A stretch of 64,000 nucleotides of DNA from a virus (lineage: Duplodnaviria; Caudoviricetes), in the IMG/VR virus record IMGVR_UViG_3300031912_000009, positions 1,418-65,417 of that record; one strand, given 5' to 3'. The notes under the pieces were generated by a model. It was not told the DNA's origin and made no database searches. It was given only the letters and a program-made list of their open reading frames with translations. Shown here one piece after another: positions 14,566 through 37,423 of the stretch. Position numbers and translations under genes: made by a program. Numbering within the stretch: position 1 is the first letter of the stretch; each line of letters begins with the position of its first letter.

Positions 14566-14759
14566 AGGCCGCGGAAAACCTCAAGCTGGGCTGGCTGATC
14601 GGTACTGATGATAGCGGCAAGGTCTATCAAATGCGGGATTGGACCGACATGATTGGCGTCTGCGGTATGGATTGTAAGAAGGGCGAAGAGGTTAAGGTGC
14701 TGAGTGATTACGATTCAGTCATGGAAGCTTTGATGCGTGATGCAGCGGACCGGCAATGA
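14562..14759 (+). CDS. Hypothetical protein
   Basis: 65 aa with ATGA overlaps on both sides. Confidence 0.55.
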   Translation: MKAAENLKLGWLIGTDDSGKVYQMRDWTDMIGVCGMDCKKGEEVKVLSDYDSVMEALMRDAADRQ

Positions 14760-15355
14760 GCCAATTTCTAAATGCCAAGGATTTGATGGATTTCGAACGG
14801 GATATCGAACAGCTATTTGCGGCTGGTGCGATCAAATCTCCGGTACATTTGGCCGGTGGCAACGAACACGAACTGATCCGTATCTTTTCCGGCATTAAAA
14901 GCTATGACTGGGTGCTGTGTACTTGGAGGGCGCATTATCATGCATTACTGCGAGGTGTACCGCCCACACAGGTCAAGAAGGCGATTCTTGACGGCCATAG
15001 CATCGCTTTGTGCTTCCCTGCCTATAAATTTCTTTCGTCAGCGCTTGTCGGTGGCATCTGTCCCATTGCCACTGGAATTGCTTGGGCCATCAAACGTCGT
15101 CACGGTCGGGAAGTGGTACACTGTTTCGTGGGTGACATGGCCGTCCGAACTGGCATCTACCATGAATGTCAGCAGTACTGTATGGGACACGACTTACCTG
15201 TCCACTGGATCATCGAGGATAACGGGAAGTCGGTGACCACGAATACGCGCGAGGTTTGGGGGAAGGGCGTGTTCAAGACGGCACCAGACAAGACGGTCTA
15301 TCAATATGAGCTTAACCGCCCCCACGTTGGCATCGGAACGTTTGTCGTATTTTAG
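14756..15355 (+). CDS. Minimal TPP-dependent dehydrogenase E1 alpha-like subunit
   Basis: PVHL..GNE, WRAHYHAL, SSALVGG, TPP motif VGD...EDN; only 199 aa. Confidence 0.85.
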   Translation: MSQFLNAKDLMDFERDIEQLFAAGAIKSPVHLAGGNEHELIRIFSGIKSYDWVLCTWRAHYHALLRGVPPTQVKKAILDGHSIALCFPAYKFLSSALVGGICPIATGIAWAIKRRHGREVVHCFVGDMAVRTGIYHECQQYCMGHDLPVHWIIEDNGKSVTTNTREVWGKGVFKTAPDKTVYQYELNRPHVGIGTFVVF

Positions 15356-15884
15356 TGCGTTGTGCGAGGCGATGAAGCTTTGCGCGCGCCGTGATGCGAT
15401 CTTTATCGGTCAGGGTGTAGGGCTGCATGGCGGTACGACCATGAGCCAAACGCTGATCCATGCGATCCCGTCACAGCGCTGGGAGTTTCCGGTCGCTGAA
15501 GATATGCAGATGGGTTTCTGCATTGGTATGGCACTGGAAGGCCTGTTGCCGGTCTGTATCTTCCCGCGGTGGAATTTCTTCTTATTGGCATGGAACCAAG
15601 CGATCAATCATCTCGATCGGCTGCCACTGTATTCTTACGAGGGATACAATCCGAAGGTGATTATTCGCACGGCTATTCCGTCCACGATACCTTTTAATCC
15701 TGGGCCGCAGCATGACGATGATTTCACTGAGGCCTTTAGTCTGATGACGCGCAGGATCAAGGTGGTGCGGCTAGGGAATGTAGAACAGATTATTCCGGCC
15801 TATAAGGCGGCCTTGGATGAGAACGGATCGACGTTACTTGTTGAGTATACTGATTGCTATAAAAACGAACGGGCGAAGGGATGA
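15306..15884 (+). CDS. Minimal TPP-dependent dehydrogenase E1 beta-like subunit (pyrimidine-binding domain only)
   Basis: IFIGQGV, EFPVAEDMQMGFCIGMALEG, NQAINHLD, GPQH; start may be TTG 15342. Confidence 0.85.
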   Translation: MSLTAPTLASERLSYFSALCEAMKLCARRDAIFIGQGVGLHGGTTMSQTLIHAIPSQRWEFPVAEDMQMGFCIGMALEGLLPVCIFPRWNFFLLAWNQAINHLDRLPLYSYEGYNPKVIIRTAIPSTIPFNPGPQHDDDFTEAFSLMTRRIKVVRLGNVEQIIPAYKAALDENGSTLLVEYTDCYKNERAKG

Positions 15885-16075: not shown

Positions 16076-16262
16076 GGACTTCTATCATGTCACCATCCGG
16101 TTCGGTGCTGGTATTCCGAACTCAACGCAAGGTGAGGTGATGTTGGATTTGGAAAAAGCGCTGCGGGCGCGCGGTTTGCCGGCTGAAGTCTTCAAGGATA
16201 GCATGGGCGATGACAGCAAGTTGCGTCGTGCGATGACGCCAGAACAGCGGGCGAAGCTATGA
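16068..16262 (+). CDS. Hypothetical protein
   Basis: 64 aa, coupled to the radical SAM start. Confidence 0.6.
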   Translation: MNKDFYHVTIRFGAGIPNSTQGEVMLDLEKALRARGLPAEVFKDSMGDDSKLRRAMTPEQRAKL

Positions 16263-17374
16263 GCGACATCCATGAATACCTTTTGGACGGCACGAAAGTT
16301 GGTTGGTGGCGCGATCGTGTTGAAGCGTGGCAGCGAGGAGAGAAAATTGCGCCCGTATCGATGGATGTCGCTTGGACACGGCGGTGTCAGGCAGCGTGTA
16401 CGTTTTGTTTCTCGCAAATGCAAGCCAGTGAAGGTGGCGAGATTACCAAAGAGATCGCCTTGGACTACTTGGACGATGCCGCAGAAATTGGCGTCAAGGG
16501 GATATCGCTTATCTCGGACGGCGAGAGCACTTTGGTTCCCTATTACGCTGAAAGTATTGAACACGCAGCCAAGCTTGGCATTAAGATCGGAGTTGGCTCG
16601 AACGGTATTGCGCTTACGCGCCCGGTCCTAGAGCGCATCCTTCCCCACATCTCGTATCTCCGCTTCAATTTTAGCGCGGGCGAACGCAAGCGTTACGCTG
16701 AAATTATGGGAGTGAAACAGGTATTCTTCGACCGCGTCGTGCAGAATATCAGGGACGCTATGGAGATCGTAAGGCGCGACAATTTGCAATGCACAGTCAA
16801 TATGCAGATGGTCACCATGCCGTCGATGGGCGACCAGATCCTGCCGCTGGCTAAACTTGGTCGCCAGCTTCGACCACACTATGTGATCTTTAAGCATTGT
16901 TCGGATAACGAAGATGGCTTCCTGGGGATGGATTACAGCAAGTATGACGCACTTTACGAAACATTCAAGCAAGCAGAAGCCATGGGGGATGAGGACTTAC
17001 GCATCATAGTCAAGTGGAATAGGCTGGCCGATGAAGGAAAGCGACAGTACTCGCGATGTCTTGGACCTCCATTTCAGTTACAGATTTCAGGCAATGGATT
17101 GGTGTCTACATGCGGTTTTCACTTTAATTCCAAGTACAGGAAATTTCACATGGGGTGGATCGCTGGTGAAGAGAAACAGCGATTCAAGGCAATCTGGGAA
17201 AGTGATCGATATTGGGAGATCGTTCGATACTTAGCATCGGATGAATTCGATCCGCGGTCTAGATGCGGCACGCAGTGCTTGCAGACGCATACTAATAAGT
17301 GGCTGTTCGACTACACTGAAGGTAAGCGAGACTTTCCGGCCTCGCCGGCTCCGCCGCATCTGGAGTTTCTCTAG
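16259..17374 (+). CDS. Radical SAM enzyme with SPASM/twitch-like C-terminal domain
   Basis: CQAACTFC (CX3CX2C), SDGES (GGE-like), C-terminal RCLG...STCG...RCGTQC. Confidence 0.92.
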   Translation: MSDIHEYLLDGTKVGWWRDRVEAWQRGEKIAPVSMDVAWTRRCQAACTFCFSQMQASEGGEITKEIALDYLDDAAEIGVKGISLISDGESTLVPYYAESIEHAAKLGIKIGVGSNGIALTRPVLERILPHISYLRFNFSAGERKRYAEIMGVKQVFFDRVVQNIRDAMEIVRRDNLQCTVNMQMVTMPSMGDQILPLAKLGRQLRPHYVIFKHCSDNEDGFLGMDYSKYDALYETFKQAEAMGDEDLRIIVKWNRLADEGKRQYSRCLGPPFQLQISGNGLVSTCGFHFNSKYRKFHMGWIAGEEKQRFKAIWESDRYWEIVRYLASDEFDPRSRCGTQCLQTHTNKWLFDYTEGKRDFPASPAPPHLEFL

Positions 17375-18114
17375 TGCTGGTTAAGGACGATGCGCATTAT
17401 TGGTATCCAATCCCTATCATTACTGATTGGCTGACTGACCATGTCATCGCCCCGCGGCAATTGGTGGTCGATGTTGGTTGTGGTCATAACCCGTTCCGGC
17501 GAGCCGATATCGGCCTAGACCGGGTCGATCGCACGGAATTGGAGAAGGCTTGGAAGGCTATGGATATCGAGCCACCACCGGAAAGCTTCCGGTTGGTGAG
17601 GCATGATTTCGCTCGTACAGCGCTGCCATTTGACGACAAGGAAGTAGATTTCATTTATTGCCGGCACACCTTAGAGGATATGCATGACCCGTTTTTATTG
17701 ATGGCTGAGATGCAGCGGGTCGCCAAGGCGGGCTATATCGAGACACCGTCGCCGGTCTGCGAGATTGCGCGCGGGGTGGATGGTGGCCCTAATGCGTACT
17801 GGCGTGGTTACCACCATCATCGTTTTATTGTCTGGGAGAATGAGGGAAGCCTGAACTTCATTACCAAATTTCCGATGATCGAACATATCCAGTTTGATGA
17901 AGACAGGATTGAAAGTGCGCTTCGCGGCAGTCCGTTGTTGTGGAACACCTATTATCTATGGAAAGATGAGATCCGCTGGAAGCATTGGGAAATGCCGTTG
18001 GACTTCGAATTCTGGACTGATTATCCAAAATTGCTGGTTCGATCGGCGACCGAAACCCTTAAGTCAGCGCAAGCTTTTAGCCGCATGGTCGACAAGCAAA
18101 GGCAAGCAGCATGA
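17374..18114 (+). CDS. Class I SAM-dependent methyltransferase
   Basis: VVDVGCGHNP motif I; LPFDDKEVDFIYCRHTLED. Confidence 0.85.
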   Translation: MLVKDDAHYWYPIPIITDWLTDHVIAPRQLVVDVGCGHNPFRRADIGLDRVDRTELEKAWKAMDIEPPPESFRLVRHDFARTALPFDDKEVDFIYCRHTLEDMHDPFLLMAEMQRVAKAGYIETPSPVCEIARGVDGGPNAYWRGYHHHRFIVWENEGSLNFITKFPMIEHIQFDEDRIESALRGSPLLWNTYYLWKDEIRWKHWEMPLDFEFWTDYPKLLVRSATETLKSAQAFSRMVDKQRQAA

Positions 18115-18985: not shown

Positions 18986-19051
18986 TTCCTTTCACATTCG
19001 CCAAGGCAGTGCTTGTCGGGCGGGGTGCATAACCCGCTCGGAGTCGCTGTT

Positions 19052-19666
19052 ATGGCGAATATTCAATCTCAATTCGGCTTCAAGCACGTCGGGTATGTCA
19101 GCGGCGGCGCCCCTGACATGCAGTTGCAGAATTTTACGATCGCGTCGTCTTATGCAACGCAGATCGGGTTCGGCGATCCGGTCACTTTCACGACCTCTCC
19201 TGCCGGCACGATTATCCAAGCCACTAATTCGCTGGCGACTACTCAACCGATCGTCGGCATCTTCCAGGGTTGTTATTACATTCCAACGGCTGGCGTTCCG
19301 TTGCCGACATGGTCACCGTTCTGGCCTGGATCGGGAGTTGCGCAGAACGCAACGGCTTATGTTATCTCGGCGCCTAATGCGCTGTTCCTCGCTGCATCGC
19401 TTCTAACAGCGATCGGAACAAACAATATCGGCTACAACGTAAATTTTACTTCCGGTGCGCCGGTCACGACTGGCGGCGGATATTCAATCGCCACGCTCGA
19501 TCAATCAACACTGACGACAGGTCTTGGCACTACGTCGAGCTTCCTGCCGTTCAAAGTCTATTCGATGTTCCAGGGAATCGGGAACGGTTCGGACCCGACT
19601 ACGAACTATAACTGGGTTGTCGTGTCGTTCAATTTCCAACTGAATCGCACGATCACGCACGGTTAA
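19052..19666 (+). CDS. Head accessory/decoration protein preceding the major capsid gene
   Basis: MANIQSQFGF...IASSYATQIGFGDPV pattern; GGAG RBS before ATG 19052. Confidence 0.7.
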   Translation: MANIQSQFGFKHVGYVSGGAPDMQLQNFTIASSYATQIGFGDPVTFTTSPAGTIIQATNSLATTQPIVGIFQGCYYIPTAGVPLPTWSPFWPGSGVAQNATAYVISAPNALFLAASLLTAIGTNNIGYNVNFTSGAPVTTGGGYSIATLDQSTLTTGLGTTSSFLPFKVYSMFQGIGNGSDPTTNYNWVVVSFNFQLNRTITHG

Positions 19667-20243: not shown

Positions 20244-21158
20244 GTGCCGATAGCCCTCGCAAACATTAGGTCGGAGCTTCTCCCCGGTTTGTTTGATGTC
20301 AGAGGTTCGTATGACATGATCCCGCGTCAGTGGGACAAAGTCTTCACGACGCGCAAATCGAACCTCGCAGTTGAACGCTCAACGCAGATGGCGTTCACTG
20401 CATTGCCGTTCCTAAAAGATGAAGGTGCGGCAACTCAATTTGATAACAACGCTGGTGAACGTTTCACTTGGGCGTTTATACATATTGAGGTGAGTTTAGG
20501 TTACTCGATCACAAGAAAAGCTATAGATGATAATATTTATAAGGCGCAATTCAATCCAACGAACTTGAAGTTACAAGAAGCGTTTGCGCAATTTAAAGAA
20601 ATACAAGCAGCAAATATTCTCAATCTCGGCACGACGTATCAAGCTTCGATCATCGGTGACGGTCAAGCGTTGTTCTCGACTGCGCATCCGTTTGATGGCG
20701 GCACTTGGGCGAACACTTCGACAGTGCCGAAAAGCCTTAATGAATCGACACTTCTTGCTGATATGACGAACGTTCGTGTTCAGTTTGTGAATGAACGCGG
20801 ACTTCGTATTTTGTCGCGCGCTCGTCGTTTGATTGTTCCTCCGAATCTTGAACCTATCGCAATACGACTTACCAAGACAGAATTAAGACCGGGCGTGGCA
20901 GATAACGACGTTAATGCAATCTTAACTTTATCAGGAGGACTTCCAGAAGGATTTATTGTTCTGGACTTTCTCACGTCAAACTTTGCTTGGTTCCTCACAA
21001 CAAATATTGAGGGACTGATTCACATGCTGAGAATTCCCTACGAGTCTGATATGTGGGTGGACAACGTAACTGATAACTTACTCGTGAAAGCATATGAGAG
21101 GTATAGTTTCGGTTACAACGATCCGCGCGCAGCGTGGGGTGAATTTGCTACGAGCTAA
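20244..21158 (+). CDS. Major capsid protein (HK97 fold)
   Basis: ELLPGL...KDEGAA..FD...LGYSITRKAIDDN...GDGQALFSTAHP...RERYSFG-type pattern; AAGGAGG RBS, GTG start. Confidence 0.9.
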   Translation: MPIALANIRSELLPGLFDVRGSYDMIPRQWDKVFTTRKSNLAVERSTQMAFTALPFLKDEGAATQFDNNAGERFTWAFIHIEVSLGYSITRKAIDDNIYKAQFNPTNLKLQEAFAQFKEIQAANILNLGTTYQASIIGDGQALFSTAHPFDGGTWANTSTVPKSLNESTLLADMTNVRVQFVNERGLRILSRARRLIVPPNLEPIAIRLTKTELRPGVADNDVNAILTLSGGLPEGFIVLDFLTSNFAWFLTTNIEGLIHMLRIPYESDMWVDNVTDNLLVKAYERYSFGYNDPRAAWGEFATS

Positions 21159-23056: not shown

Positions 23057-23731
23057 ATGGCGCTGCCGAATGTAATTACCTTTCAAATTGGGACCGGCAA
23101 CGCAACGTATATTGTTAATGCGGCTGCGGCGACCAATGCGCCATTGGCCCTTGCCACGACCATCATGCCAAGCTTTGCGCAGTTTGGCCTTCAGCAAAGG
23201 GCGTTAGTCAGCTCGGTTGGTAACGATAGTGGCATTTTCTTTCGCATTGTCGGGCTGAACCAAGCTGGGTTCACGGTCACGGAATTCTTAGCAGGCACGA
23301 ATGCAACCTTCGCCGTATCGGCGCAGGATTATTCCAAGATCATTTCTATTCAAGGGTCATCGTCTGGTACGACGTTGATCCCGGCAGCTACTGCGAACAG
23401 TGTGTCGGTTGGTATCAGCACGACGGGCGGTACTGCCTCGACAATGTGGCAGATTATGAATTGGCATGTCTCGCCGACTAACATCGAATTGTCGGGAGTG
23501 TTACAGAGTGGCGCTGCGACATGGACTGCGCAGTACACTTACGATGATCCAAATAATCTGCCTGCGGGAGTTTTTACGCCGCAGCCATTCAACCACCCGA
23601 CCCTGCTAAATCAGACCGGATCTCTCGATGGTCCGATCAATGATCCGGTGACCGCAGTACGGTTTTTGATTGCGGCCGGAACCGGAACAATGCGCTTTAC
23701 CGTCATCCAGGCGGGAATCGGCAGCCCATGA
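23057..23731 (+). CDS. Virion structural protein (beta-rich)
   Basis: 224 aa, low charge, TWTAQYTYDDP motif. Confidence 0.7.
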   Translation: MALPNVITFQIGTGNATYIVNAAAATNAPLALATTIMPSFAQFGLQQRALVSSVGNDSGIFFRIVGLNQAGFTVTEFLAGTNATFAVSAQDYSKIISIQGSSSGTTLIPAATANSVSVGISTTGGTASTMWQIMNWHVSPTNIELSGVLQSGAATWTAQYTYDDPNNLPAGVFTPQPFNHPTLLNQTGSLDGPINDPVTAVRFLIAAGTGTMRFTVIQAGIGSP

Positions 23732-23994
23732 GATGTTTTGGTCTATTGCCGTTTGTGGGTTTTGCTACTGTCGGCTTGGCATATGCGCAGCCGACTGGCA
23801 CCAATACGCCAGCGGCATCGATTCTTGGTCCCGGCACGGTGTCTGCGTTGCCGGCTTGCAATACTGCTATCCGCGGCACGAGAGGATTTGTTACCGATAA
23901 TGCTACTGCGACGACTTGGCTTGGTGCGGTGACAGGTGGCGGCACATCTGCCGGACCTGTGATCTGCAATGGCGTAAGCTGGCTACAGGATTGA
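23728..23994 (+). CDS. Small protein with signal peptide and fibre-tip-like motif
   Basis: MRCFGLLPFVGFATVGLAYA-Q; TVSALPACN...RGFVTD...VICNGVSW. Confidence 0.6.
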   Translation: MRCFGLLPFVGFATVGLAYAQPTGTNTPAASILGPGTVSALPACNTAIRGTRGFVTDNATATTWLGAVTGGGTSAGPVICNGVSWLQD

Positions 23995-24601: not shown

Positions 24602-27600
24602 ATGGCCGACCCCAACGGCAGAAACTCACCTCCCGATCTAGGCGCTTATTCGAACGCGGCACCGGCTGCCGGCGTGGCAATGGGCGCGGTTGATGCCAGC
24701 GGCAATCTGCAACCGTTATCGATTTCGCCGACTGGCGGGCTGATCGTTGCCGGGTCGTTTGCGGCTGGGTTTTCGACTACTGCGCTAGCCGTCACGACCC
24801 AAACGAACGGCACGGGCGCCTTGGTATGGCTGGCTCCGACCCAGACTTTGAATGTCGCGATTGGGGCCTCGACGGCCATAGCGACCACGACCCAAGCGGC
24901 TGTGACGGGCGCTATCGTATGGCTCGCCCCTACCCAGACGGTTACCGCGCAAGTCAGCGGATCGGTTCAGGTCAGCGGCACCGTCAGTGTTTCGGGTGCT
25001 TCGTTCTCTTCGACCGCGGTTGCCACCACTACCCAGTCCGGACAATCAGGCGTGACGGGCGCGGTGGTGTGGCTCGGGCCGGCGCAAACGATCACTGCGC
25101 AAGTGTCGGGTCAGGTTCAGGTGTCCGGCACGGTATCGGTTGCGTCCGGCACCGTTTCTGTCTCGGGGCTGACGCCGACCACGACTGCATCCGGCATGAG
25201 TGGTGTGACAGGCTTGCCGGTGTGGGTTGGCAATCCCGGTGGCAATACGACCGTCGTATCCGGAACGGTCACCGTATCCAATCCGATTCAAGTTAGCGGC
25301 CTAACGCCCACGACCACTGCCAGCGGCATGTCGGGGGTCACGGGGCTTCCGGTATGGGTCGGTAATCCTGGCGGCAATACCACGGTGGTGTCCGGCACCG
25401 TCAGCCTTGTGACGGTTAGCTCGGTCGGAACGATCGTCACCCTGCTTGGCACCGTACTGGTGTCTGAAGCGGCGGCGATCTCGATTTCATCGATTGTGGC
25501 TACGACGACGGCCAGCGGCTTAAGCGGTGTCACAGGCTTGCCGGTCTGGGTAGCCAATCCTGGCGGCAACACAACCGTGGTTTCCTTAACCGGCAGTGCG
25601 CTGGTCAGCGGGACCGTTTCGCTTGTGACGGTGTCATCGGTCGGCACGGTGGTTACGCTTCTCGGCACCATCAATGTGTCCGGTCCTGTTCAGATCAGCG
25701 GTATCACGCCGACTACTACAGGTTCGGGTTTGAGTGGTGTTGCTGGTCTTCCGGTGTGGATCGCACCCGGCGGCGGCGCGACGACGGTTGTTTCGTTGAC
25801 GGGAAGTGCGTTGGTCAGTGGCACGGTGTCGATCTCGACTGCTGTGGTTGCCACCACAACGCAAACGGCTGCGACGGGTGAATTGGTATGGCTTGCTGCC
25901 ACGCAAACGCTTGCGGTCATCAGTACTGTCGGCACGGTACTCGGCACTGTTGCGGTTAACGTTGTCGCTGGTGGCGCTGCACCCGGCACAACATTTACTG
26001 GACAGACATCAAATACGGCGCAGCTTGTCTGGTTAGCGCAAACCCAGACGTTGAGTTTGATCAGCACTATCGTGACCGTTCTGGGAACACTTCAGGTTTC
26101 CGGTACGATCCAGATTTCGTCTGTTCAGGTTACGGCCAGCACGCCAACCGCAACTGCGACCGGCATGGTGGTTTGGATGGCCAATCCACCCGGTGCGGCA
26201 AACGCACCCGGCACGACTTTTACGGGTCAGACGTCGAACACGGCCCAACTAGTATGGTTGGCGCAAACGCAGACGTTGTCACTGATCTCCACAATCGTCA
26301 CGGTTCTCAGCACCGTTAATGTCAGCGGTACGGTTCAGTTGTCCGCGGTGACGCCAACAACAACTGCATCTGGATTGTCTGGCGTTACTGGCGTTCCGGT
26401 GTGGGTGGCTAATCCAACGCAATTAAGTGTCAGCGCGCTCGGCACGACGTTCACGGGTCAAACTAGCAACACAGCGCAATTGGTGTGGTTAGCGCAAACG
26501 CAAACTCTGTCGCTGATTTCGACTATCGTCACGATCCAGAACACCGTGATCGTTTCAGGTCCGGTGCAGATCAGCGGTATAACTCCAACCACGACCGCGT
26601 CTGGATTGTCTGGTGTTACTGGACTGCCGGTGTGGATGGTCGGCGGGGCTGGCGGCGGTACGACGCTGATCAGTGTTGTCTCGACCCTAATCACGATCTT
26701 AAGCACCGTTCAGGTCAGCGGCACGGTGATCCTGTCGCAAGCGGCATTCACTACAGCATCGAGTGGATTAACCGCGACGGCAACCGGACTAATCGTTGTC
26801 GCGACCGGGACTGTTTCGGCCGTCGTCACCGGCACGGTATCGGTTTCTGGAACGGTGCCGGTTACAGGAACGATCCAGAACGTTGCGTCGATCTCGACTG
26901 TGTTAGGAACGGTCGTAATCTCTGGTCCCGTTCAAATCAGCGGGATCACACCAACTACCACTGCATCTGGCTTAAGCGGCGTTACCGGACTTCCTGTCTG
27001 GATGGTGGGTGGCGGCGGCGGCGGCACGACATTGATCAGTGTCGTTTCCACACTGATTACGATCCTAAGTACCGTTCAAGTCAGTGGCACCGTTAACCTC
27101 TCGCAAGCTGCATTTACAACGGCTAGCTCGGGCTTAACCGCAACGGCTACTGGTTTGATTGTGGTGGCTACCGGCACGGTCAGTGCGGTGGTTACTGGCA
27201 CGGTTTCGGTTTCTAACACTGTTGCAGTTGCTGCGTCTGGCACAGTTTCGCTGGTCACTATCAGTTCGGTCGGAACGGTAGTCACGTTGCTTGGTACTGT
27301 GCTGGTTAGCATCACACCGTCAGCATTGGTTAGCGGTACGCTTTCATTCTCGGGTGCTGCGTTTACGACGGCCTCGAGCGGCCTGACTGCAACAGCGACT
27401 GGATTGATTGTCGTAGCGACCGGCACGGTGACTGCCGTAGTCACTGGCGTTGTTTCTGTTTCGAACATCGCGACTGGCACCGTGTCGGTTAGCAATGTGG
27501 TTTCGGTGACAGGCACCTCGTTGAATGTGGTCGCGAGTGGCACTGTATCTTTAGTCACTGTCAGTTCAGTCGGCACCATTGTTACGTTGCTTGGCGTAGT

Positions 27601-30169
27601 CGGCGTATCGATCTCGAGCTTGGCAAATACCACGACCCAATCGGCACTCAGTACCGGCATCGGAGTGTGGCTAGCTCCGACACAGACGGTCGGTCTGGTC
27701 AGCACGATCGGCACGGTCGTTACGATCTTGAGTACCGTTCAAGTTAACGTTGTCGCGGGAGGTGCCGCACCGGGTACGACATTCACTGGACAGACTAGCA
27801 ATACCGCGCAGCTTGTTTGGCTCGCTCAGACGCAAACTCTGTCTTTGGTCAGCACCATCGTGACTGTTCTGGGAACGGTTAACGTAGCTATTGTGCCATC
27901 TGCGTTGGTGTCTGGCACGGTTTCGTTGGTAACGATTTCATCTGTTGGCACCATTGTCACTCTGCTTGGTGCGGTGAATATCAGTGGTACGGTTGCAGTC
28001 TCTCAAGCTGCATTCACTACGGCCAGCTCGGGACTTACAGCAACCGCAACCGGATTGATCGTCGTAGCAACTGGCACCGTGACTGCGGTTGTGACTGGTG
28101 TGGTGTCGGTATCGAATATCGCGACCGGGACGATATCCGTTAGCAATGTCGTCAGCGTCACTGGCACCTCACTCAATGTGGTCGCCAGCGGGACTGTGTC
28201 GCTTGTTACGATATCGTCGGTCGGCACGATCGTTACAATTCTTGGTACGCAAGTCGTGAGTGTCGTGCCTGGAGTGTCGGTGTCCGCCGTAGTGTCTGGC
28301 ACCGTCGCGATCTCACAGGCTGCCTATACGACGGCCTCATCGGGACTAACGGCCACTGCAACAGGATTGATCGTAGTGGCCACCGGCACTGTGACGGCTG
28401 TAGTGACTGGCACAGTCTCGCTGGTGACAGTATCTAGCGTTGGCACCGTCGTTACATTGCTTGGCACGGTGCTGATGTCGCTTGTTCCAGGCGGCTCGAT
28501 CTCAGCTATTGGGACCGGCACTCTTTCATTAGTCACGGTCTCATCGGTCGGCACGGTGGTGACGTTATTGGGAACGGTTAACGTTGCACCTGTTCAGCAA
28601 GCCTACACGACTGCATCAAGCGGCCTGACTGCGACTGCAACCGGATTGATAGTTGTTGCTACCGGCACTGTCACGGCTATCGTCAATAGCATCGTCAGCA
28701 CCGTTTTGGTGAACGTAGTCGCGGGCGCGGCGGGCGGCGCGCCGGCTACAGCAACCTCTCAGAGTGCCATGTCCACGGCTATGGGAGTGTGGCTCGCCCC
28801 CACACAGACCATGACCGTGACTGTTGCTACCGGCACGGTCAACGTTACCAGCACGGTGGTTATCAGTGGCACTGTCAGTTTGGTGACCATTTCGAGTGTT
28901 GGAACGATTGTTACCTTATTAGGTGCAGTTAATATTAGCGGTACTATTGCGCAGTCTCAGGCTGCCTATACGACAGCTAGCTCTGGACTTACCGCAACTG
29001 CGACCGGCATCATTGCGGTGGTGACTGGTACTGTGACGGCTACCGTAGTCGGCACGGTCAACGTCGTATCGATCACTGCGCTCAGTACCATAATCACAAT
29101 TCTCGGTACTCAGGTCGTGACGGTTGTGCCGGGATTGTCGGTTAGCGCTGTGGTCAGCGGTACGGTCACTGTCGGCAACACAATCAATGTCACCGCGCCA
29201 GGATTGACGGTCACGACCACGCAATCCGCTTTGACCACGGGTCAACCGATCTGGCTGGCTCCGACCCAGACTATGGGTGTGATATCAACCATTGTCTCAG
29301 TCCTGACAGTCGTCACAATTCTCGGCACTCAGGTCGTCACCGTTGTGCCTGGATTGTCGGTCAGCGCTCAAGTTAGCGGTACAGTTTCGATCAGCGGCGG
29401 CGGCGGCGGTATCGGCACAACGTTTACTGGACAGACCAGCAACACTGCGCAGTTGGTGTGGTTAGCGCAAACGCAAACGTTGAGCGTTCTCAGCACTGTT
29501 GTCACGTTACTTGGAACTGTCAATGTCACCATTGTCAGCAATACGACGAATGTCACCGGCACCGTTTCGCTGGTTACAGTTTCATCGGTTGGCACGATCG
29601 TCACTTTATTAGGAACGATAAATGTTAGCGGCTCGCAGGTGATTACTGGCACTGTCAGTATTAGCGGTGGCGTGACGATGGCACAGTCTGGTCAGACGCA
29701 GGTATTGCTATACTTTACGGGTACAAGCGTACAGAATAACAACCTACTCGCTAGTATCACTCTATATACTGGCAATACACGGGTTGCTGTCACGACGTTA
29801 TATGCGGTCCCGTCAGGTAAGACTCTTAGGATAATGTATATAGCCGGGCTTGCGCTGCTATCTACGGCTGGGGCTGGCGGCACGAACAATGGTTATGGGA
29901 TCGTCCAAGTTCTTTGTGCTACAGCGGCCGCAAGCATCACAAATACCGCCACTGTTGGTGTCGTCGCGCAGGCTTTTTACATCATTAACCCAATGGCTGG
30001 CGCAAGCGGGTCCACATTTTCGCCGCTCCCTCCTCAAACGTCATTTTATGTAGGGGATATCTATGCCGACGTTCCTGGCACCACTACGATTGGTATTTTC
30101 GTTAACCCGCAAGGTACTGGTGCTAACCAACCAACTATAGCAGTAGCGGTCGGTGGATATTTGTTCTGA
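24602..30169 (+). CDS. Giant Thr/Val/Ser/Gly-rich repetitive fibre-like protein (1855 aa)
   Basis: Uninterrupted ORF built from at least four shuffled repeat units, with a distinct C-terminal globular domain. Confidence 0.9.
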   Translation: MADPNGRNSPPDLGAYSNAAPAAGVAMGAVDASGNLQPLSISPTGGLIVAGSFAAGFSTTALAVTTQTNGTGALVWLAPTQTLNVAIGASTAIATTTQAAVTGAIVWLAPTQTVTAQVSGSVQVSGTVSVSGASFSSTAVATTTQSGQSGVTGAVVWLGPAQTITAQVSGQVQVSGTVSVASGTVSVSGLTPTTTASGMSGVTGLPVWVGNPGGNTTVVSGTVTVSNPIQVSGLTPTTTASGMSGVTGLPVWVGNPGGNTTVVSGTVSLVTVSSVGTIVTLLGTVLVSEAAAISISSIVATTTASGLSGVTGLPVWVANPGGNTTVVSLTGSALVSGTVSLVTVSSVGTVVTLLGTINVSGPVQISGITPTTTGSGLSGVAGLPVWIAPGGGATTVVSLTGSALVSGTVSISTAVVATTTQTAATGELVWLAATQTLAVISTVGTVLGTVAVNVVAGGAAPGTTFTGQTSNTAQLVWLAQTQTLSLISTIVTVLGTLQVSGTIQISSVQVTASTPTATATGMVVWMANPPGAANAPGTTFTGQTSNTAQLVWLAQTQTLSLISTIVTVLSTVNVSGTVQLSAVTPTTTASGLSGVTGVPVWVANPTQLSVSALGTTFTGQTSNTAQLVWLAQTQTLSLISTIVTIQNTVIVSGPVQISGITPTTTASGLSGVTGLPVWMVGGAGGGTTLISVVSTLITILSTVQVSGTVILSQAAFTTASSGLTATATGLIVVATGTVSAVVTGTVSVSGTVPVTGTIQNVASISTVLGTVVISGPVQISGITPTTTASGLSGVTGLPVWMVGGGGGGTTLISVVSTLITILSTVQVSGTVNLSQAAFTTASSGLTATATGLIVVATGTVSAVVTGTVSVSNTVAVAASGTVSLVTISSVGTVVTLLGTVLVSITPSALVSGTLSFSGAAFTTASSGLTATATGLIVVATGTVTAVVTGVVSVSNIATGTVSVSNVVSVTGTSLNVVASGTVSLVTVSSVGTIVTLLGVVGVSISSLANTTTQSALSTGIGVWLAPTQTVGLVSTIGTVVTILSTVQVNVVAGGAAPGTTFTGQTSNTAQLVWLAQTQTLSLVSTIVTVLGTVNVAIVPSALVSGTVSLVTISSVGTIVTLLGAVNISGTVAVSQAAFTTASSGLTATATGLIVVATGTVTAVVTGVVSVSNIATGTISVSNVVSVTGTSLNVVASGTVSLVTISSVGTIVTILGTQVVSVVPGVSVSAVVSGTVAISQAAYTTASSGLTATATGLIVVATGTVTAVVTGTVSLVTVSSVGTVVTLLGTVLMSLVPGGSISAIGTGTLSLVTVSSVGTVVTLLGTVNVAPVQQAYTTASSGLTATATGLIVVATGTVTAIVNSIVSTVLVNVVAGAAGGAPATATSQSAMSTAMGVWLAPTQTMTVTVATGTVNVTSTVVISGTVSLVTISSVGTIVTLLGAVNISGTIAQSQAAYTTASSGLTATATGIIAVVTGTVTATVVGTVNVVSITALSTIITILGTQVVTVVPGLSVSAVVSGTVTVGNTINVTAPGLTVTTTQSALTTGQPIWLAPTQTMGVISTIVSVLTVVTILGTQVVTVVPGLSVSAQVSGTVSISGGGGGIGTTFTGQTSNTAQLVWLAQTQTLSVLSTVVTLLGTVNVTIVSNTTNVTGTVSLVTVSSVGTIVTLLGTINVSGSQVITGTVSISGGVTMAQSGQTQVLLYFTGTSVQNNNLLASITLYTGNTRVAVTTLYAVPSGKTLRIMYIAGLALLSTAGAGGTNNGYGIVQVLCATAAASITNTATVGVVAQAFYIINPMAGASGSTFSPLPPQTSFYVGDIYADVPGTTTIGIFVNPQGTGANQPTIAVAVGGYLF

Positions 30170-30186
30170 TAACTGGAGACAGTAGA

Positions 30187-32001
30187 ATGCAGAATTATAT
30201 GTTGGTGCCGCAACAGGGTGTCGAGCCTGCGGATGAATGGATCAGGCTTGGTGTTGAGGCGCAAGTTGCAAATCGATTTGATGATGCCGATCGGCATTAT
30301 CGTCAGGCGCTGCGGGCTGATCCGCGCAATGCCATCGCGACATTGAACTTTGCGATTTTGTATGTACAGCGAGGCAATCTGAATGAAGCATTGCTGACGA
30401 TTGAACGAGCGTTGATGTTCGATAAGGGACATGCGGTCATTGAGATGAACCACGCGCTGATGTTGTTGGATGCTGACCGTATTGATGAAGCGTTGACCGC
30501 AGGAAAACGTGCGGTAGCCATGACGAAAGATCCTAATGAGATCAATCCGAAGCTTGCGCTTGCGATGATCCTTGCGACTGCTGGTCACGCGGCAGATGCG
30601 GTTCCGCTTTATAATGAAATCCTCGATAAGCAACCAGAACATCCGTTGGCCGGACCGAATAGCTGTTTCATTCAAACCTTATGCGATTGCACGCCAGAGG
30701 ATTTATTGGCGCAGCGTAAGCGTTGGTACAGCGCTCATCGGTATAAAGGAACGGTCAAAGGCCATAACGTTCACGATCGATCATGGCCGCGGCCATTGCG
30801 AGTTGGCTATGTATCGCCTGACTTCAAGACACATTCGGCTTCGATGATTTACCGTAATGTAATTATGCATCACGATCTGAATGTTGTGGTGCCGTATTTT
30901 TATTCTACGCTTCCGGTCGATCCGAATACCGATATGTTCACCAAGCAATTTATGGATTCGGCTGGCGATCGCTGGCGAGATCTTGTCGGGAAAACCGATG
31001 ATGAAGCTGAGCGCATGATCCGCAATGATGAGATCGATATTCTGGTCGATCTTGCTGGCCACACCAATGGTAATCGTCTGACGATCTTCACACGGAAGCC
31101 GGCGCCAATCCAAATCTGCGCATGGGGCTTCGCCCATGGAACGGGGTTGCCTGAGATAGATTATTTCTTTGCCGATGAGGTATCGGTGCCGCAGAACGAG
31201 CGGCAATACTTTGCCGAGAAGATCTATGATTTGCCATGCATTCTGACTTACGAGGATGTGGGTCAAGGCGGCATTGGCAATGGTTCCGATCACATTCCGT
31301 TCCGGCAGAATGGCTACATCACCTTTGGCAGTTCCGCTCGTTATGAAAAGCTGTCCGCTGAGTGCTTGAAGGTCTTCTCCGAGATTATGAAACGGGTGCC
31401 TGACGCGGTCCTGCGGCTGAAGGATTCGGCTTATCGCCGCCCTTATGCGATCAAGCGGGTGACGGAAGCAATGCCGGACATCGACCCGAAGCGCCTGCAT
31501 TTTCTGATTGCCACTAGCCATCCGGAACACATGCAGGCTTATCGTGCGGCCGATCTCCAGCTTGATCCGTTTCCCCATGGTGGTGGCGTAGTAGCGCTAG
31601 AACAGATTTTCATGGGATTGCCGATTATCACTCTGCGAGGCCGGCAACCATCTGGTCGTAATACGGCCAGTGTTCTCCACGCCATGGGGCGCGACGAGTG
31701 GATTGCCGACACCAAGGAACAGTATGTGGAGATTGCCGTCCGGTTGGCTGACGATATTAAGACGCTGCGCGCCTGTCGTAATAGTCTGCGCGGTGAACTT
31801 TTGAACTCGCCTGTGGTAAAAGGTTATCGGGAAGCTGTGGAGGCAGCTTACCGGGATATCTGGGAGAAGTTTATCGGCAAGCGGGCGGCACCACAGGCAG
31901 AGGTGTTGCCGCCAGCGAAGAAGAAAGGACGACCGAAGAAGGAAGTGCCAGTTCCCCCACTGACTGGAAACGGCAAGGATGGCCTCGAGCGGCACCTATA
32001 A
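30187..32001 (+). CDS. TPR + SPINDLY/OGT-type glycosyltransferase (CAZy GT41-like)
   Basis: About four N-terminal TPRs; LRVGYVSPDFKTHS, IDILVDLAGHT, KPAPIQ, TGLPEIDY, ITFGS, DLQLDPFPHGGG..MGLPIITL. Confidence 0.93.
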   Translation: MQNYMLVPQQGVEPADEWIRLGVEAQVANRFDDADRHYRQALRADPRNAIATLNFAILYVQRGNLNEALLTIERALMFDKGHAVIEMNHALMLLDADRIDEALTAGKRAVAMTKDPNEINPKLALAMILATAGHAADAVPLYNEILDKQPEHPLAGPNSCFIQTLCDCTPEDLLAQRKRWYSAHRYKGTVKGHNVHDRSWPRPLRVGYVSPDFKTHSASMIYRNVIMHHDLNVVVPYFYSTLPVDPNTDMFTKQFMDSAGDRWRDLVGKTDDEAERMIRNDEIDILVDLAGHTNGNRLTIFTRKPAPIQICAWGFAHGTGLPEIDYFFADEVSVPQNERQYFAEKIYDLPCILTYEDVGQGGIGNGSDHIPFRQNGYITFGSSARYEKLSAECLKVFSEIMKRVPDAVLRLKDSAYRRPYAIKRVTEAMPDIDPKRLHFLIATSHPEHMQAYRAADLQLDPFPHGGGVVALEQIFMGLPIITLRGRQPSGRNTASVLHAMGRDEWIADTKEQYVEIAVRLADDIKTLRACRNSLRGELLNSPVVKGYREAVEAAYRDIWEKFIGKRAAPQAEVLPPAKKKGRPKKEVPVPPLTGNGKDGLERHL

Positions 32002-32674
32002 CTTTGCGCCTAGTAACGGTGAGTTGGTTCTATCCGCTTACGAGCGGATACAGATCCGTGCGCCTGAGATTCGCCAGGAACATATGTTCACTGCGCGCCG
32101 CGAATTGAACTACATGTTCAGTTCGTGGTCGAACATGACGCCGAACCTCTGGGAGGTGATCCGGACCCAGACGACGCTGGTCAAAGGCACTGCTACCTAC
32201 AGCATTCCGCCGCAGTTCATTATGATCTTGGACGCCTCGATCGTCCTGAATTTCGGGCTGGCAAATGAATCGCGCCGTTACATAACGCCGATCAGCCGTA
32301 CCGAATATCTGAGCTTCTCCAATCAACAGGTTCTCGGTCCGCCGACCGTGTTCTGGTTTGACCGGCTGATCTCGCCGACCGTTACGTTCTGGCCAGTGCC
32401 GGATCAGAATTCGACCTACACCTTCGATTGGTACGGCTGCACACAGCAGTTCGACGCCAACCTTGCCGGTGGCGAAACGCCGGATATCCCGTATCGCTGG
32501 ATCGATGCTTTAGTTGCCGGCTTGGCGCATCGATTAAGTCGCGTCTACGCACCACAACTTGAACAGCAACGCAGCGCTGATGCTGATAAGGCATGGGAAG
32601 CCGCGGCGGCTCAGGACACTGAGAACGTTGGGTTCATGCTGGCACCGGGCCTCGCGCAGTATTACCGGAGGTAA
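31979..32674 (+). CDS. Head-tail adaptor (P22 gp4-like position)
   Basis: MASSGTYNF...ARRELNYMFSSWSN..PNLW...ISRTEY...WPVPD...DIPYRWIDALVAGLA. Confidence 0.75.
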   Translation: MASSGTYNFAPSNGELVLSAYERIQIRAPEIRQEHMFTARRELNYMFSSWSNMTPNLWEVIRTQTTLVKGTATYSIPPQFIMILDASIVLNFGLANESRRYITPISRTEYLSFSNQQVLGPPTVFWFDRLISPTVTFWPVPDQNSTYTFDWYGCTQQFDANLAGGETPDIPYRWIDALVAGLAHRLSRVYAPQLEQQRSADADKAWEAAAAQDTENVGFMLAPGLAQYYRR

Positions 32675-33052: not shown

Positions 33053-33541
33053 ATGGTTGCAACTCCCGGCACTATCCCGGCAATGACGCCGTATCAACCC
33101 GGCGCATTGCCGTGGTCCGGTCAAGAAGTCATAGAGATCGCATCCAGTAATAATGCGACCGTGGCCGTCACTGGCTATGTGCCGCTGACTGATGTTCTCG
33201 GCAAAGGCATCAGCCAATTGCCGTTGGTTGTGCCGACAACTGCCGATCGGGTGGCGATCTTCCAAGCATCTACTGGTCTGCCAAAGTCCGCTACCTTTGG
33301 CAGTATCTCAGTGCCGGCTGGCAATGTGAACACAGGTGGTGGCACTGGTACGCTCTATGTCAAGAATTCAGCGACGAACTTTGACGCAAGCTTTACGACG
33401 ACGCTGCCGTGTAACGGAACACCGACCGGAATTCCGAATCTGCCGAACGGCACTACTGGTCACGCACCAATGGTGTTCGATACTGCGAATAACAAGCTCT
33501 GGTTTTACAACGGGGCGTGGAAGGGCGCGACGTTTAGCTAA
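33053..33541 (+). CDS. Virion structural protein (short fibre-like)
   Basis: C-terminal APMVFDTANNKLWFYNGAW motif. Confidence 0.65.
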   Translation: MVATPGTIPAMTPYQPGALPWSGQEVIEIASSNNATVAVTGYVPLTDVLGKGISQLPLVVPTTADRVAIFQASTGLPKSATFGSISVPAGNVNTGGGTGTLYVKNSATNFDASFTTTLPCNGTPTGIPNLPNGTTGHAPMVFDTANNKLWFYNGAWKGATFS

Positions 33542-34928: not shown

Positions 34929-37007
34929 ATGCCGTGGGGTTCGGTTAGACTGATCCCTGGAGTTAACGTCGAGCGCACGCCAACGCTGAACGAAGCAGGC
35001 GTGTCGTCGTCGCAGCTCATCCGTTACCGCGACGGATTGATCCAGAAGTTCGGTGGCTGGTCGTCGTATCTTAGCACGACGACACTCGGTGTTCCGCGAG
35101 CGTTGCATGCTTGGGAAGACCTGAACGGTAGCACTTGGTTAGCAGTCGGCACGCCATCACAGTTAGCAATCATTCCGAATGGTACGACGATCATTGATAT
35201 CACGCCGCAAGTTTTCACATCGTCGTCAATTGCAACGTCTACGTTTATCATTAATTGGGAGATTGGTGGCCAAACAGTTCAATTTTTAGATTCAGCTATT
35301 AAGCCCAGCTATACGGCGGCTGGTCCCAGTATTGTCAGTTCGATTACTCCGAATATCGATGCGATCTATTTTAACACGCCAGTCGGTCTTCAGACTGCGG
35401 TGTTGAATGAGTACTTCAGTGGATTTTTTACGTCCGGCGTTCAAGTGCCTGGAGCCGGGACGACAGCATTTTCGGTGGGTTTAAGCATACCGCAAGGTCT
35501 TGGCAATGGGAGTGCAGCTACTTTTCTACCCCAGTTTACTACGCTTGCGGGGAGTGCCTATGTTCAGGTCAGTCGTGTTCTGGTTGGTGCGGCTCATTTA
35601 CAACAAGGGAGTGTTATCAATTTTGATATTCCGACTACTGCTAACGGTGTGACAATTTCTGGAGCTTATGTAGTCCAAACACCCACTACAGGAAGCAGCT
35701 TTTATATTTTAGCCAGCCAAATTGCCACTGGTTCAGGCACTTTTTCAATGAACAGCGGCAACGTTTCTTTAACATACTATCTTGCGGTTGGTGTTTCTCC
35801 AGGCAATGAAATGACTGGGACCAAACTGTCAGCGGCTGATTGGTCACTGGCGAATTGGGGAGAGATATTACTTGCGTGTCCAAGCAACGGCCCGATATTC
35901 CAATGGTTTGCCGGCAATGAAACCTTGACGGCTAATCCGGTTGGCACGGCACCAGCAAAAAACGGTGGCATTTTCGTTTCAAATGCGCAGCAAGTTTTGA
36001 TCTGCTGGGCTTCGTCTGGATCGCCGAACCAAACTGGAAGTGCCTTTGGGGTGATACAAAATCCGTTGCAAGTGGCGTGGTCGAATGTTGGTGACTACAC
36101 CACATTCGGCGCGTCTTCGACCAATCAAGCCGGATCATTTGTGATCCCATCTGGCAGCACTTGCCGTGGCGGCATGTCGGTGGCGTCACAGAATATCATT
36201 TGGACTGACATCGATTGTTGGGCCATGAATTATCTTGGCTTCCCGTTGGTTTACGGTTTCTCCAAGATCGGTGCAGGAGCTGGCTTGATCGCACAGCATG
36301 CTACAATGCTGTTACGAGGTGTGGTCTATTGGATGGGGCCAAGCAATTTCTTTCGTCTTACCGGCAATGGTGTCGAAGTCATTCCGTGTCCGGTCTGGGA
36401 CTTTGTATTTCAAAATATGAATACGGCGCACGTTGCTAATATTCGCGCCATGCCAAACACGCCTTTTAATGAGGTGGGTTGGTTATTTCCGTCTGCCGCG
36501 TCGTCTGGTGAATGCGACAGCTATGTCAAATTCAATGTGACTGAACAAGGCGAGCCTTGGGATTATGGCACGATTAGCCGGTCCGCCTGGATCGATCAAA
36601 GCGTGCTAGGCAATCCGATATCTGCCGATCTTAACGGTAATCTATGGGTGCAAGAAACCGGCAACAATGCTGGTGGTTCGGCGATGACGTCGTCATTCAC
36701 GACTTCATACTTTATGATCCAAGATGGTGAAGACTTTGCTTTCGTAGATTTTGTTGTGCCGGATATGATTTGGGGAACATATTCCGGACCGAAGACCGCC
36801 AACGTTCAGTTGACTTTTAACATTGTGGATTATCCAGGCGATGCGCCACGAACCTTTGGTCCGTTCACCGTAACTCAGGGACAGGAATTTATCACACCGC
36901 GGATGCGCGGTCGGCAAATGTCAATCACCGTTACGTCTAACGATAGCGGTTCGTTCTGGAGGCTCGGCCGCATCCGCTATCGGTTCGCGCAGTCGGGACG
37001 ACGCTAA
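34929..37007 (+). CDS. Tail nozzle / DNA stabilisation protein (P22 gp10-like)
   Basis: 692 aa; IPGVNVE.T...IRYRDGLIQKFGGW start and PRMRGRQ...FWRLGRIR end; position after adaptors. Confidence 0.75.
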   Translation: MPWGSVRLIPGVNVERTPTLNEAGVSSSQLIRYRDGLIQKFGGWSSYLSTTTLGVPRALHAWEDLNGSTWLAVGTPSQLAIIPNGTTIIDITPQVFTSSSIATSTFIINWEIGGQTVQFLDSAIKPSYTAAGPSIVSSITPNIDAIYFNTPVGLQTAVLNEYFSGFFTSGVQVPGAGTTAFSVGLSIPQGLGNGSAATFLPQFTTLAGSAYVQVSRVLVGAAHLQQGSVINFDIPTTANGVTISGAYVVQTPTTGSSFYILASQIATGSGTFSMNSGNVSLTYYLAVGVSPGNEMTGTKLSAADWSLANWGEILLACPSNGPIFQWFAGNETLTANPVGTAPAKNGGIFVSNAQQVLICWASSGSPNQTGSAFGVIQNPLQVAWSNVGDYTTFGASSTNQAGSFVIPSGSTCRGGMSVASQNIIWTDIDCWAMNYLGFPLVYGFSKIGAGAGLIAQHATMLLRGVVYWMGPSNFFRLTGNGVEVIPCPVWDFVFQNMNTAHVANIRAMPNTPFNEVGWLFPSAASSGECDSYVKFNVTEQGEPWDYGTISRSAWIDQSVLGNPISADLNGNLWVQETGNNAGGSAMTSSFTTSYFMIQDGEDFAFVDFVVPDMIWGTYSGPKTANVQLTFNIVDYPGDAPRTFGPFTVTQGQEFITPRMRGRQMSITVTSNDSGSFWRLGRIRYRFAQSGRR

Positions 37008-37423
37008 TGCCAGCCTCATTAGATGACATCCTGACTGCCATCAAAGGCGCGACACAGAACTTGTCGAACCTGACGATCGCATTCGGCTCACCCGGTCGTA
37101 CCTCGCAATCGTTTACGACCTCGCCAGTCGCGAGCTACTTTAATTCAATCGCTAGCGCGGCTTTTGGAACTCAACCGTTTCAGGTCGTGGCGTTTAACGC
37201 CAATCGACGCGCCATATCGTTTCATAGTTGTGATCCGATGGGGAACACGACGATGTGGCTGACGACCAATACAACTTTTGCCGGTGCTGGAGTTCCGCAA
37301 GGCATCGCCTTGGTGCCAGGAATGAACTGGGTTATTGATGCGAACAGCGGATCGAACGCAGCTTGGTTTGCGATAGCGGGGAGTGGAACAACCAACAAGC
37401 TATTAGTGCTGGAGTACGTCTGA
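37007..37423 (+). CDS. Virion structural protein
   Basis: 138 aa, low charge, follows the nozzle. Confidence 0.65.
   Translation: MPASLDDILTAIKGATQNLSNLTIAFGSPGRTSQSFTTSPVASYFNSIASAAFGTQPFQVVAFNANRRAISFHSCDPMGNTTMWLTTNTTFAGAGVPQGIALVPGMNWVIDANSGSNAAWFAIAGSGTTNKLLVLEYV

Follow-up and report, generated by a model that had tools for sequence, protein, structure and literature searches.

The gene at positions 30187–32001 of a 64,000-nucleotide stretch of phage DNA (hereafter the window; positions 1,418 to 65,417 of IMG/VR virus record IMGVR_UViG_3300031912_000009) encodes a family 41 protein glycosyltransferase (GT41) with tetratricopeptide repeats (TPRs). The record represents a soil-type phage and is 65.4 kb long, with an estimated completeness of 96%. 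We consider it probable that the gene product is an active, soluble, late-expressed enzyme that O-glycosylates, in the cytoplasm, the giant Ser/Thr-rich protein encoded just upstream, with a sugar derived from a phage cassette as the probable donor. The closest functional analogy would be with the TPR-GT41 enzymes that act in bacterial flagellin glycosylation islands. The module consists of the following features (ORF, open reading frame; aa, amino acids; nt, nucleotides).

24602–30169, plus strand: giant Ser/Thr-rich ORF of 1855 aa, the proposed acceptor (translation, composition, and homologues upstream of GT41)
30175–30179, plus strand: Shine-Dalgarno sequence GGAGA, 7 nt before the GT41 ATG and inside the 17-nt gap (read from the sequence)
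30187–32001, plus strand: TPR-GT41 protein glycosyltransferase of 604 aa with an ATG start (Pfam, PDB sequence search, AlphaFold2, and Foldseek)
31979–32674, plus strand: first of three SU10-type head-tail adaptor paralogues, marking the end of the module (Pfam SU10_adaptor, E = 4e-11)

The ORF coordinates agreed exactly with the initial annotation, which had described a gap of 17 nt between the giant ORF (ending at 30169) and the GT41 start on the same strand, an overlap of 23 nt between GT41 and the next gene, and a head-tail adaptor encoded by that gene, which proved to be a member of the SU10_adaptor family. The start of the adaptor at 31979 is credible because its homologues, including relatives at 83% and 73% identity, align over the full length (residues 1–231). 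The 23-nt overlap arises because the C-terminal tail of GT41 extends into the adaptor gene. This tail (aa 565–604, window 31879–31998) is disordered and Lys/Pro-rich, with an AT-hook-like KKKGRPKK motif; a similar basic tail was found only in the closest relative (P0004) and was absent from almost all other relatives. A promoter and terminator scan of the region gave nothing above chance, and the gap between the giant ORF and GT41 has no terminator.

The assignment to GT41 was far beyond chance: Glyco_transf_41 (Pfam PF13844) matched the ORF with a score of 140 bits (E = 7.7e-41), well above its cut-off of 25, and several Pfam TPR families matched residues 15–155. The motifs YVSPDF.THS, LAGHT, and ITFGS, on which a SPINDLY-like enzyme had initially been proposed, are present as GYVSPDFKTHS (207–217), DLAGHTNGN (288–296), and YITFGS (377–382). 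Among solved proteins, Arabidopsis SPINDLY (SPY; 7y4i/8dtf) was the best match (E = 4e-81), aligning in one stretch from SPY residues 295–846 to aa 15–564 of the phage protein, and was followed in the PDB sequence ranking by Thermobaculum 'OGT', human OGT, and Xanthomonas OGT. HMW1C gave a weak match to the C-lobe alone in the PDB search (E = 1e-4), and its NCBIfam score of 25 bits fell far short of the cut-off of 1000. An AlphaFold2 model built on 47 relatives (predicted local distance difference test score, pLDDT, 89; predicted template modelling score, pTM, 0.85) comprised four TPR helix pairs (aa 14–148), a connector, a GT-B domain (aa ~200–562) with alternating beta strands and alpha helices of the Rossmann type, and a disordered end (residues 569–604). 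The top Foldseek matches of the model were all GT41 structures, with SPY first at 29% identity and a template modelling (TM) score of 0.77–0.79.

To locate the active site, functional residues of SPY (PMC9715652, PMC10027727) were transferred to the phage protein through a HMMER alignment. SPY residues D491, H495, S496, K665, K689, H728, A731, and E752 are retained as D212, H216, S217, K388, K412, H448, A451, and E472, respectively. These include the D..H-S motif of the N-Cat lobe (D212, H216, and S217), the phosphate-binding Lys K665, which is essential in SPY according to the structure papers (PMC9715652, PMC10027727), and the pair K689/A731, which recognizes guanine in SPY and has L866/R904 as its counterpart in OGT (PMC10027727). 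In a set of 131 relatives with 44–80% identity, D212, H216, S217, A218, W313, R385, K388, K412, H464, G467, and E472 were invariant in all sequences, while A451 varied (Ala in 88, Thr in 19, and Ser in 14). The TPR Asn-ladder equivalents N54 and N88 were conserved in at least 98% of the relatives. Because the catalytic residues are invariant, the enzyme is very probably active, and the catalytic region that had been described as intact-looking is indeed not degenerate. A catalytically dead protein whose sole role is to chaperone the giant protein through its TPRs, or to aid its assembly, would fit the facts that TPR proteins are often chaperones and that tail-fibre chaperone genes commonly follow fibre genes. 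However, the catalytic and nucleotide-binding residues that were defined by SPY mutagenesis and are shared across GT41 did not vary among the 131 sequences, which indicates purifying selection on catalysis, and we give the dead-enzyme explanation almost no credence.

The sugar side of the active site differs from that of SPY. Y744, V497, I592, N662, and T747/T748 of SPY are replaced by H464, A218, W313, R385, and G467/V468 in the phage protein, and the changes Y744A/C, V497R, and I592R abolish SPY activity (PMC9715652, PMC10027727). Since SPY's fucose-binding residues are exchanged, the phage enzyme is, judged from the alignment, probably not a SPY-type fucosyltransferase; the initial placement closest to SPINDLY therefore stands among solved proteins but does not extend to the fucose site. 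The nucleotide side appears SPY-like and would suit a purine nucleotide, and the predicted sugar pocket, with His464, matches neither SPY (Tyr) nor OGT (Cys). His464 was ruled out as a phage-specific signature, since His occupied this position in 105 of 387 GT41 modules from the top 150 representatives.

Comparison with the named GT41 enzymes places the phage protein nearest in architecture to SPY, a protein O-fucosyltransferase (PDB 7y4i, 8dtf–8dti). Both have C-terminal TPRs followed by a GT-B domain without an intervening domain, the Asn-ladder positions of the TPRs are kept (N54, N88), and the guanine pair K689/A731 corresponds to K412/A451. However, the phage enzyme has four TPRs, which align to SPY residues 295–430 (the last TPRs of SPY), whereas SPY has 11 with its dimer interface on TPR6–9. 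Furthermore, the fucose-binding Tyr (Y744) and the fucose-methyl pocket (V497/I592) of SPY are replaced, the enzyme is encoded by a phage, and its likely donor is not GDP-fucose. OGT (SEC) has L866, R904, and C917 where the phage enzyme has K412, A451, and H464; it also differs in the intervening domain between the lobes, which the phage enzyme lacks, and the Foldseek alignment to human OGT had a root-mean-square deviation of ~11 Å (TM ~0.6). Unlike HMW1C and related N-glycosyltransferases (NGT), the phage GT41 has TPRs, and it shows no full-length similarity to the NGT fold.

The proposed acceptor is the compositional extreme of the window. The 1855-aa giant protein consists of 31% Ser and Thr (19% Thr and 12% Ser), 18% Val, and 12% Gly, with only ~13 charged residues (0.6%). 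It contains recurring, dispersed peptide motifs, and segments of the protein carry the motifs PTTTASGLSGVTGLPVW and AAFTTASSGLTATATG; no tandem repeats were found in the DNA of the giant ORF. Pfam and PHROG searches of the giant ORF gave no match, and a protein atlas placed it with unnamed viral clusters only. The C-terminal ~170 aa (aa ~1680–1855, window ~29640–30166) are non-repetitive, and a search of 5.8 billion proteins found no real homologues of the C-terminal 296 aa. This domain could be a distal or receptor-binding domain. The upstream gene had been described as a giant fibre: it is a real ORF with conserved relatives, while the evidence for its identity as a fibre is its position and composition.

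We infer that the giant protein is the acceptor because the two genes were strictly coupled. In related loci, a homologous or similarly composed giant ORF (514–1746 aa, 24–32% Ser and Thr, at most 2.5% charged residues) was found 0–6 kb upstream of GT41, with the single exception of a second GT41 paralogue. Among 30 whole viral records, the giant ORF was present in 10 of the 10 records with GT41 (found by searching the whole record in nine, and by blastp together with composition in the other) and in none of the 20 without it, 12 of which were at least 90% complete (Fisher's exact test, ~3e-8, ignoring relatedness). Relatives with a major head protein 88–96% identical to that of the window had either both genes or neither. 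The complete genome G006 has neither: there, the homologue of the gene at 23057 directly abuts the adaptor, with no GT41 or giant ORF between them. For 11 of 14 loci, the nearest neighbour by GT41 was also the nearest by the giant ORF, against about one expected by chance, and the window GT41 clustered with GT41s of other phage architectures, not with those of its own phage type. The pair therefore moves between phage architectures as a unit, and its co-occurrence covered at least five of them. This strict co-occurrence and co-inheritance fits the dedicated fibre-modifying role that the initial annotation had suggested. A search for relatives with the adaptor protein recovered only two records, both with GT41, and hence offered no contrast.

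A conserved protein of ~440 aa was encoded between the giant ORF and GT41 in four loci from several phage types (L006:7734–9020, L013:7670–8992, L014:3427–4749, and L020:2395–3717). Its N-terminus has a motif similar to ...WRVRPxGSxxNGGGYD in L006, L013, and L014 and differs in L020. A spike or beta-helix protein belonging to the GT41 module is a possible identity.

The GT41 gene lies among the late structural genes of a tailed phage, since the following genes and the three SU10_adaptor genes surround it.

491–2275: terminase (profile searches)
4938–7388: portal (profile searches)
20244–21158: Mu gpT-like major head protein (profile searches)

Further structural proteins that are Ser/Thr-rich (19–21%) and charge-poor (3–7%) are encoded at 19013–19666, 23057–23731, 23728–23994, 33053–33541, and 37007–37423, and these proteins also occur in relatives that lack GT41.

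Two other choices of acceptor can be weighed against this background. GT41 might be a broad virion glycosyltransferase that acts on several Ser/Thr-rich, low-charge structural proteins (such as those of 19013–19666, 23057–23731, 33053–33541, and 37007–37423), with the giant protein as one of them, and both OGT and SPY are multi-substrate enzymes (PMC9715652). However, these other proteins are also found in GT41-less relatives such as G006, and the giant ORF alone tracks the presence and absence of GT41, so we regard a broad enzyme as quite unlikely. Still less probable, in our judgement, is that GT41 modifies host proteins during infection (flagellin, regulatory, or defence proteins) and that its linkage to the giant ORF is incidental. 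The late structural operon position, the close translational coupling to the giant ORF, and the perfect co-occurrence across at least five phage architectures argue against it. The nearest cellular relatives lie in flagellar clusters, eukaryotic GT41 enzymes regulate many intracellular proteins, and the window copy has the AT-hook-like basic tail, all of which would suit host targets, but this tail is missing from almost all relatives. No flagellin gene was found in the window, and nothing in the analysis supported host defence proteins, which had been offered initially as an alternative target.

The second part of our proposal concerns the donor, for which the window encodes a candidate pathway inside the head-gene module (SAM, S-adenosylmethionine; ThDP, thiamine diphosphate).

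10894–11808, plus strand: GT-A fold glycosyltransferase with an invariant DDD at residues 91–93 (PHROG glycosyltransferase, E = 2.7e-5)
11808–13181, plus strand: HldE-like bifunctional enzyme in reversed order, with an N-terminal nucleotidyltransferase and a C-terminal PfkB kinase (Pfam CTP_transf_like and PfkB)
13178–13696, plus strand: GmhA-like SIS isomerase (Pfam SIS_2; NCBIfam gmhA at E = 2e-25, below its cut-off)
14756–15355 and 15306–15884, plus strand: ThDP-enzyme pair of ~200 aa each, E1-alpha-like and E1-beta/transketolase-Pyr-like (Pfam E1_dh and Transket_pyr)
16259–17374, plus strand: radical SAM/SPASM enzyme, kept with the cassette in related phages (Pfam)
17374–18114, plus strand: SAM methyltransferase, kept with the cassette in related phages (Pfam)

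The best NCBIfam matches of the HldE-like enzyme were HldE and the rfaE domains I and II, none of which reached its equivalog cut-off, and the enzyme is split into two genes in many relatives. In the nucleotidyltransferase, a degenerate STT motif preceded by an Arg of the STTR5 type was judged by eye and not relied on. The ThDP pair matched the alpha and beta subunits of pyruvate dehydrogenase (PDH) E1 in NCBIfam over their N-terminal halves only, and PDH E1 alpha in the PDB at E = 8e-6. The radical SAM enzyme and the methyltransferase are presumed to carry out sugar-tailoring steps, and no GmhB phosphatase was recognizable in the cassette. This combination of HldE- and GmhA-like enzymes, ThDP pair, radical SAM enzyme, and methyltransferase without a recognizable GmhB suggests a tailored, possibly C-branched or methylated heptose. 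Because all of the cassette enzymes scored below equivalog thresholds, they do not fix the exact structure of the product, which we take only to be probably a heptose-type sugar.

Cassette genes were present in all 14 GT41 loci or contigs that were long enough to judge, often directly adjacent to GT41. Several phage types embed GT41 in the cassette, in the series giant ORF, GT41, kinase, SIS, ThDP pair, and radical SAM. In the complete genome G022, the giant ORF, GT41, and the cassette are contiguous, and no homologue of the GT-A enzyme or of other cassette glycosyltransferases was found in it. The GT-A protein of the window was modelled with a pLDDT of 92 and matched TarP, TarS, and RmlT in Foldseek at E = 1e-7. 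Its gene lies directly upstream of the HldE-like gene across the phage group of the window, including phages without GT41; the cassette sugar therefore probably has at least one other consumer.

Cellular relatives of the enzyme bear on both the donor and the acceptor. The full active-site signature of the phage enzyme (R385, K388, K412, H448, A451, H464, G467, V/I468, and E472) was shared by the cellular proteins P0159 and P0186. The P0186 gene directly follows flgK-flagellin-fliW-csrA, and the P0159 gene is flanked by fliE on one side and, on the other, by a sugar island that contains SIS_2, E1_dh, Transket_pyr, epimerase, and methyltransferase genes. The SIS_2 protein of this island is 44% identical to the phage isomerase and the E1 protein is 28% identical to its phage counterpart; parts of the phage cassette are thus, at the sequence level, homologous to the flagellar sugar island. 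The flagellar link was seen only through representatives with the identical active-site signature; the gene surroundings of P0136 were uninformative. GT41s of the SPINDLY family have been described from flagellin glycosylation islands (PMC4875605), and the flagellar GT41s appear to be the nearest functional relatives of the phage enzyme. As in these islands, a soluble TPR-GT enzyme is encoded beside a filament-protein gene and a dedicated sugar pathway. However, the identity to the phage enzyme is only 34–41%, the cellular proteins have two GT41 units whereas the phage enzyme has one, and the phage gene lies between the giant ORF and the adaptors, with a giant repetitive protein instead of flagellin as the proposed acceptor. 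The functionally studied TPR-GT flagellin O-glycosyltransferase is FlmG, which binds flagellin through its TPR domain, glycosylates it through its GT domain, and uses CMP-pseudaminic acid as donor (PMC7591256). The restriction of GT41 to cassette-bearing phages, its frequent embedding in the cassette, and the homologous sugar genes beside its flagellar relatives favour the phage-made donor that the initial annotation had put forward.

Several observations weigh against our proposal. The phage is known from a metagenomic contig alone, and the evidence for the giant protein as a fibre or virion component is confined to gene position and composition. Globally, GT41 and the giant ORF co-diverged only weakly and without significance (Mantel rho 0.16, p 0.11), and His464 is found well beyond phage GT41s, as the module counts above show. 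The phage-made donor is the weakest step, because some phages carry the cassette but no GT41 and because a GT-A transferase accompanies the cassette. GT41 was present in only six of 48 HldE-carrying records (three of 15 near-complete ones), so that the cassette is broader than GT41. In phages of the window type, the cassette comes with the GT-A gene at 10894–11808, and in the window it is separated from GT41 by ~12 kb. The sugar identity is not given by enzymes that all fall below equivalog cut-offs. K412, A451, and H448 match the guanine-recognition set of SPY (PMC10027727), while the nucleotide sugars reported for HldE-type nucleotidyltransferases are ADP-, CDP-, or UDP-heptose, not GDP-heptose (PMC11461863).

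The main rival explanation keeps the same acceptor and changes the donor: GT41 would glycosylate the giant protein with a host nucleotide sugar (e.g., a GDP-sugar), and the cassette sugar would be used only by the GT-A enzyme (10894–11808) on another acceptor. The retained SPY-type guanine set K412/A451/H448 (PMC10027727), the many phages with the cassette and GT-A but no GT41, and the ~12 kb between cassette and GT41 in the window are what this explanation would predict. However, no sufficiently long GT41 record lacked cassette genes, several phage types embed GT41 in the cassette (one of them with a complete genome that has no GT-A homologue), a divergent GT41 paralogue closes the cassette of the record G042, the flagellar relatives adjoin homologous sugar genes, and the fucose-contact residues of SPY are replaced. 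A host-derived donor is therefore unlikely in our assessment, although it deserves more weight than any of the other alternatives.

In the mechanism that we propose, the short TPR superhelix, with the conserved Asn54 and Asn88, would grip the freshly synthesized 1855-aa protein along an extended stretch. While this protein is still in the cytoplasm and not yet assembled into virions, the GT-B domain would transfer sugar to many of its ~580 Ser/Thr hydroxyls. The donor would most probably be a heptose-type sugar that carries a purine nucleotide and that the phage cassette both makes and tailors. A nearly uncharged, beta-branched polypeptide would thus become a hydrophilic glycoprotein fibre, and the benefit that we infer would be solubility or a glycan coat.

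Related strategies are known from systems with other enzymes. TibC and AAH glycosylate TibA and AIDA-I, respectively, by cytoplasmic hyper-O-glycosylation of Ser with ADP-heptose as donor (PMC4358343). The concept is the same, with a long repetitive beta-rich surface protein as the substrate and the enzyme encoded next to it, but TibC and AAH are bacterial enzymes of an unrelated family, and for the phage GT41 the use of heptose is only proposed. No TibC-type chain was among the PDB matches to the phage GT41 at E ≤ 0.01. Mycobacteriophage glycosyltransferases reportedly modify the structural proteins of the phage itself (Freeman et al. 2023, Cell Host Microbe; touched on in PMC11256854); they are said not to belong to GT41, to have the short C-terminal tails of capsid and tail-tube proteins as acceptors, and to come without a phage sugar-nucleotide pathway of this kind. 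Viral NDP-heptose (nucleoside diphosphate heptose) biosynthetic enzymes were reported by Tang et al. 2024, as summarized in PMC11461863, with their use left open. The viruses reportedly have HldE-type and GmhA-type genes and no recognized phosphatase gene, as here; our analysis differs in that linkage points to candidate consumers (GT41 and GT-A) and to a candidate acceptor.

The phage GT41 has mainly viral relatives. A search of 5.8 billion proteins found more than 120 clusters at 54–79% identity to the phage GT41, and the gene surroundings of the five relatives P0004, P0011, P0014, P0122, and P0048 were all phage-like. Homologues with 44–61% identity were found in 12 IMG/VR loci. No GT41 match was obtained from 50,697 GenBank phage records (megablast and tblastn), and no GT41-like viral structure was found in BFVD. 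Among 185,579 prokaryote species (one genome each), there were only two GT41 matches, from an Asaia metagenome-assembled genome (MAG) and an alphaproteobacterial MAG, both at 34% identity and without flagellar genes nearby. The exhaustive representative search returned 17,044 GT41 representatives at E ≤ 1e-30. One GT41 relative, on an 8.7-kb contig, was binned in a Pyrinomonadaceae MAG, which is weak evidence on the host.

Some copies depart from the common arrangement. Two GT41 paralogues per record were found in G042 (L066:15376–17253) and G048 (L011:10001–11698). In G042, the divergent copy at the end of the sugar cassette has 33% identity and the same LDPFPHGGGV motif, and the other copy follows a giant-like ORF. 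The relative P0003 (591 aa, on a 7.9-kb contig) is 100% identical to the window GT41 over 91% of its length and then continues into a different Arg/Cys-rich C-terminus, as if the gene had undergone a frameshift or been misassembled. Representatives P0125–P0135 are proteins of 2,400–3,900 aa with 4 to 11 matched GT41 stretches, and in many of their modules Arg replaces the catalytic Lys, with Asn or Asp in place of K412.

Self-glycosylation of phage particles bears on phage adsorption, environmental stability, and immune recognition, and to our knowledge it has been shown experimentally in only a few cases. The module described here is widespread in metagenomes (at least 120 sequence clusters) and was absent from the GenBank phage records and BFVD. 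Its enzyme belongs to a family with a mechanism that has been studied thoroughly in plants and animals, and is paired with an obvious candidate acceptor and with a candidate pathway for the donor. His is invariant at the donor-selecting position, where SPY has Tyr and OGT has Cys, and makes the rule for donor choice in GT41 directly testable. A bolder reading, which we hold to be less likely than not, is that this would be the first viral GT41 and the first with an NDP-heptose-type donor, that it may turn an essentially uncharged Ser/Thr/Val/Gly protein of ~1900 aa into a mucin-like virion glycan fibre with the phage's own tailored (C-branched or methylated) heptose, and that the phage system as a whole may derive from a bacterial flagellin glycosylation island by capture. 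If true, this would for the first time assign a function to the NDP-heptose enzymes of viruses, a question left open in 2024, and the module would tie phage fibre biology to flagellin glycosylation islands.

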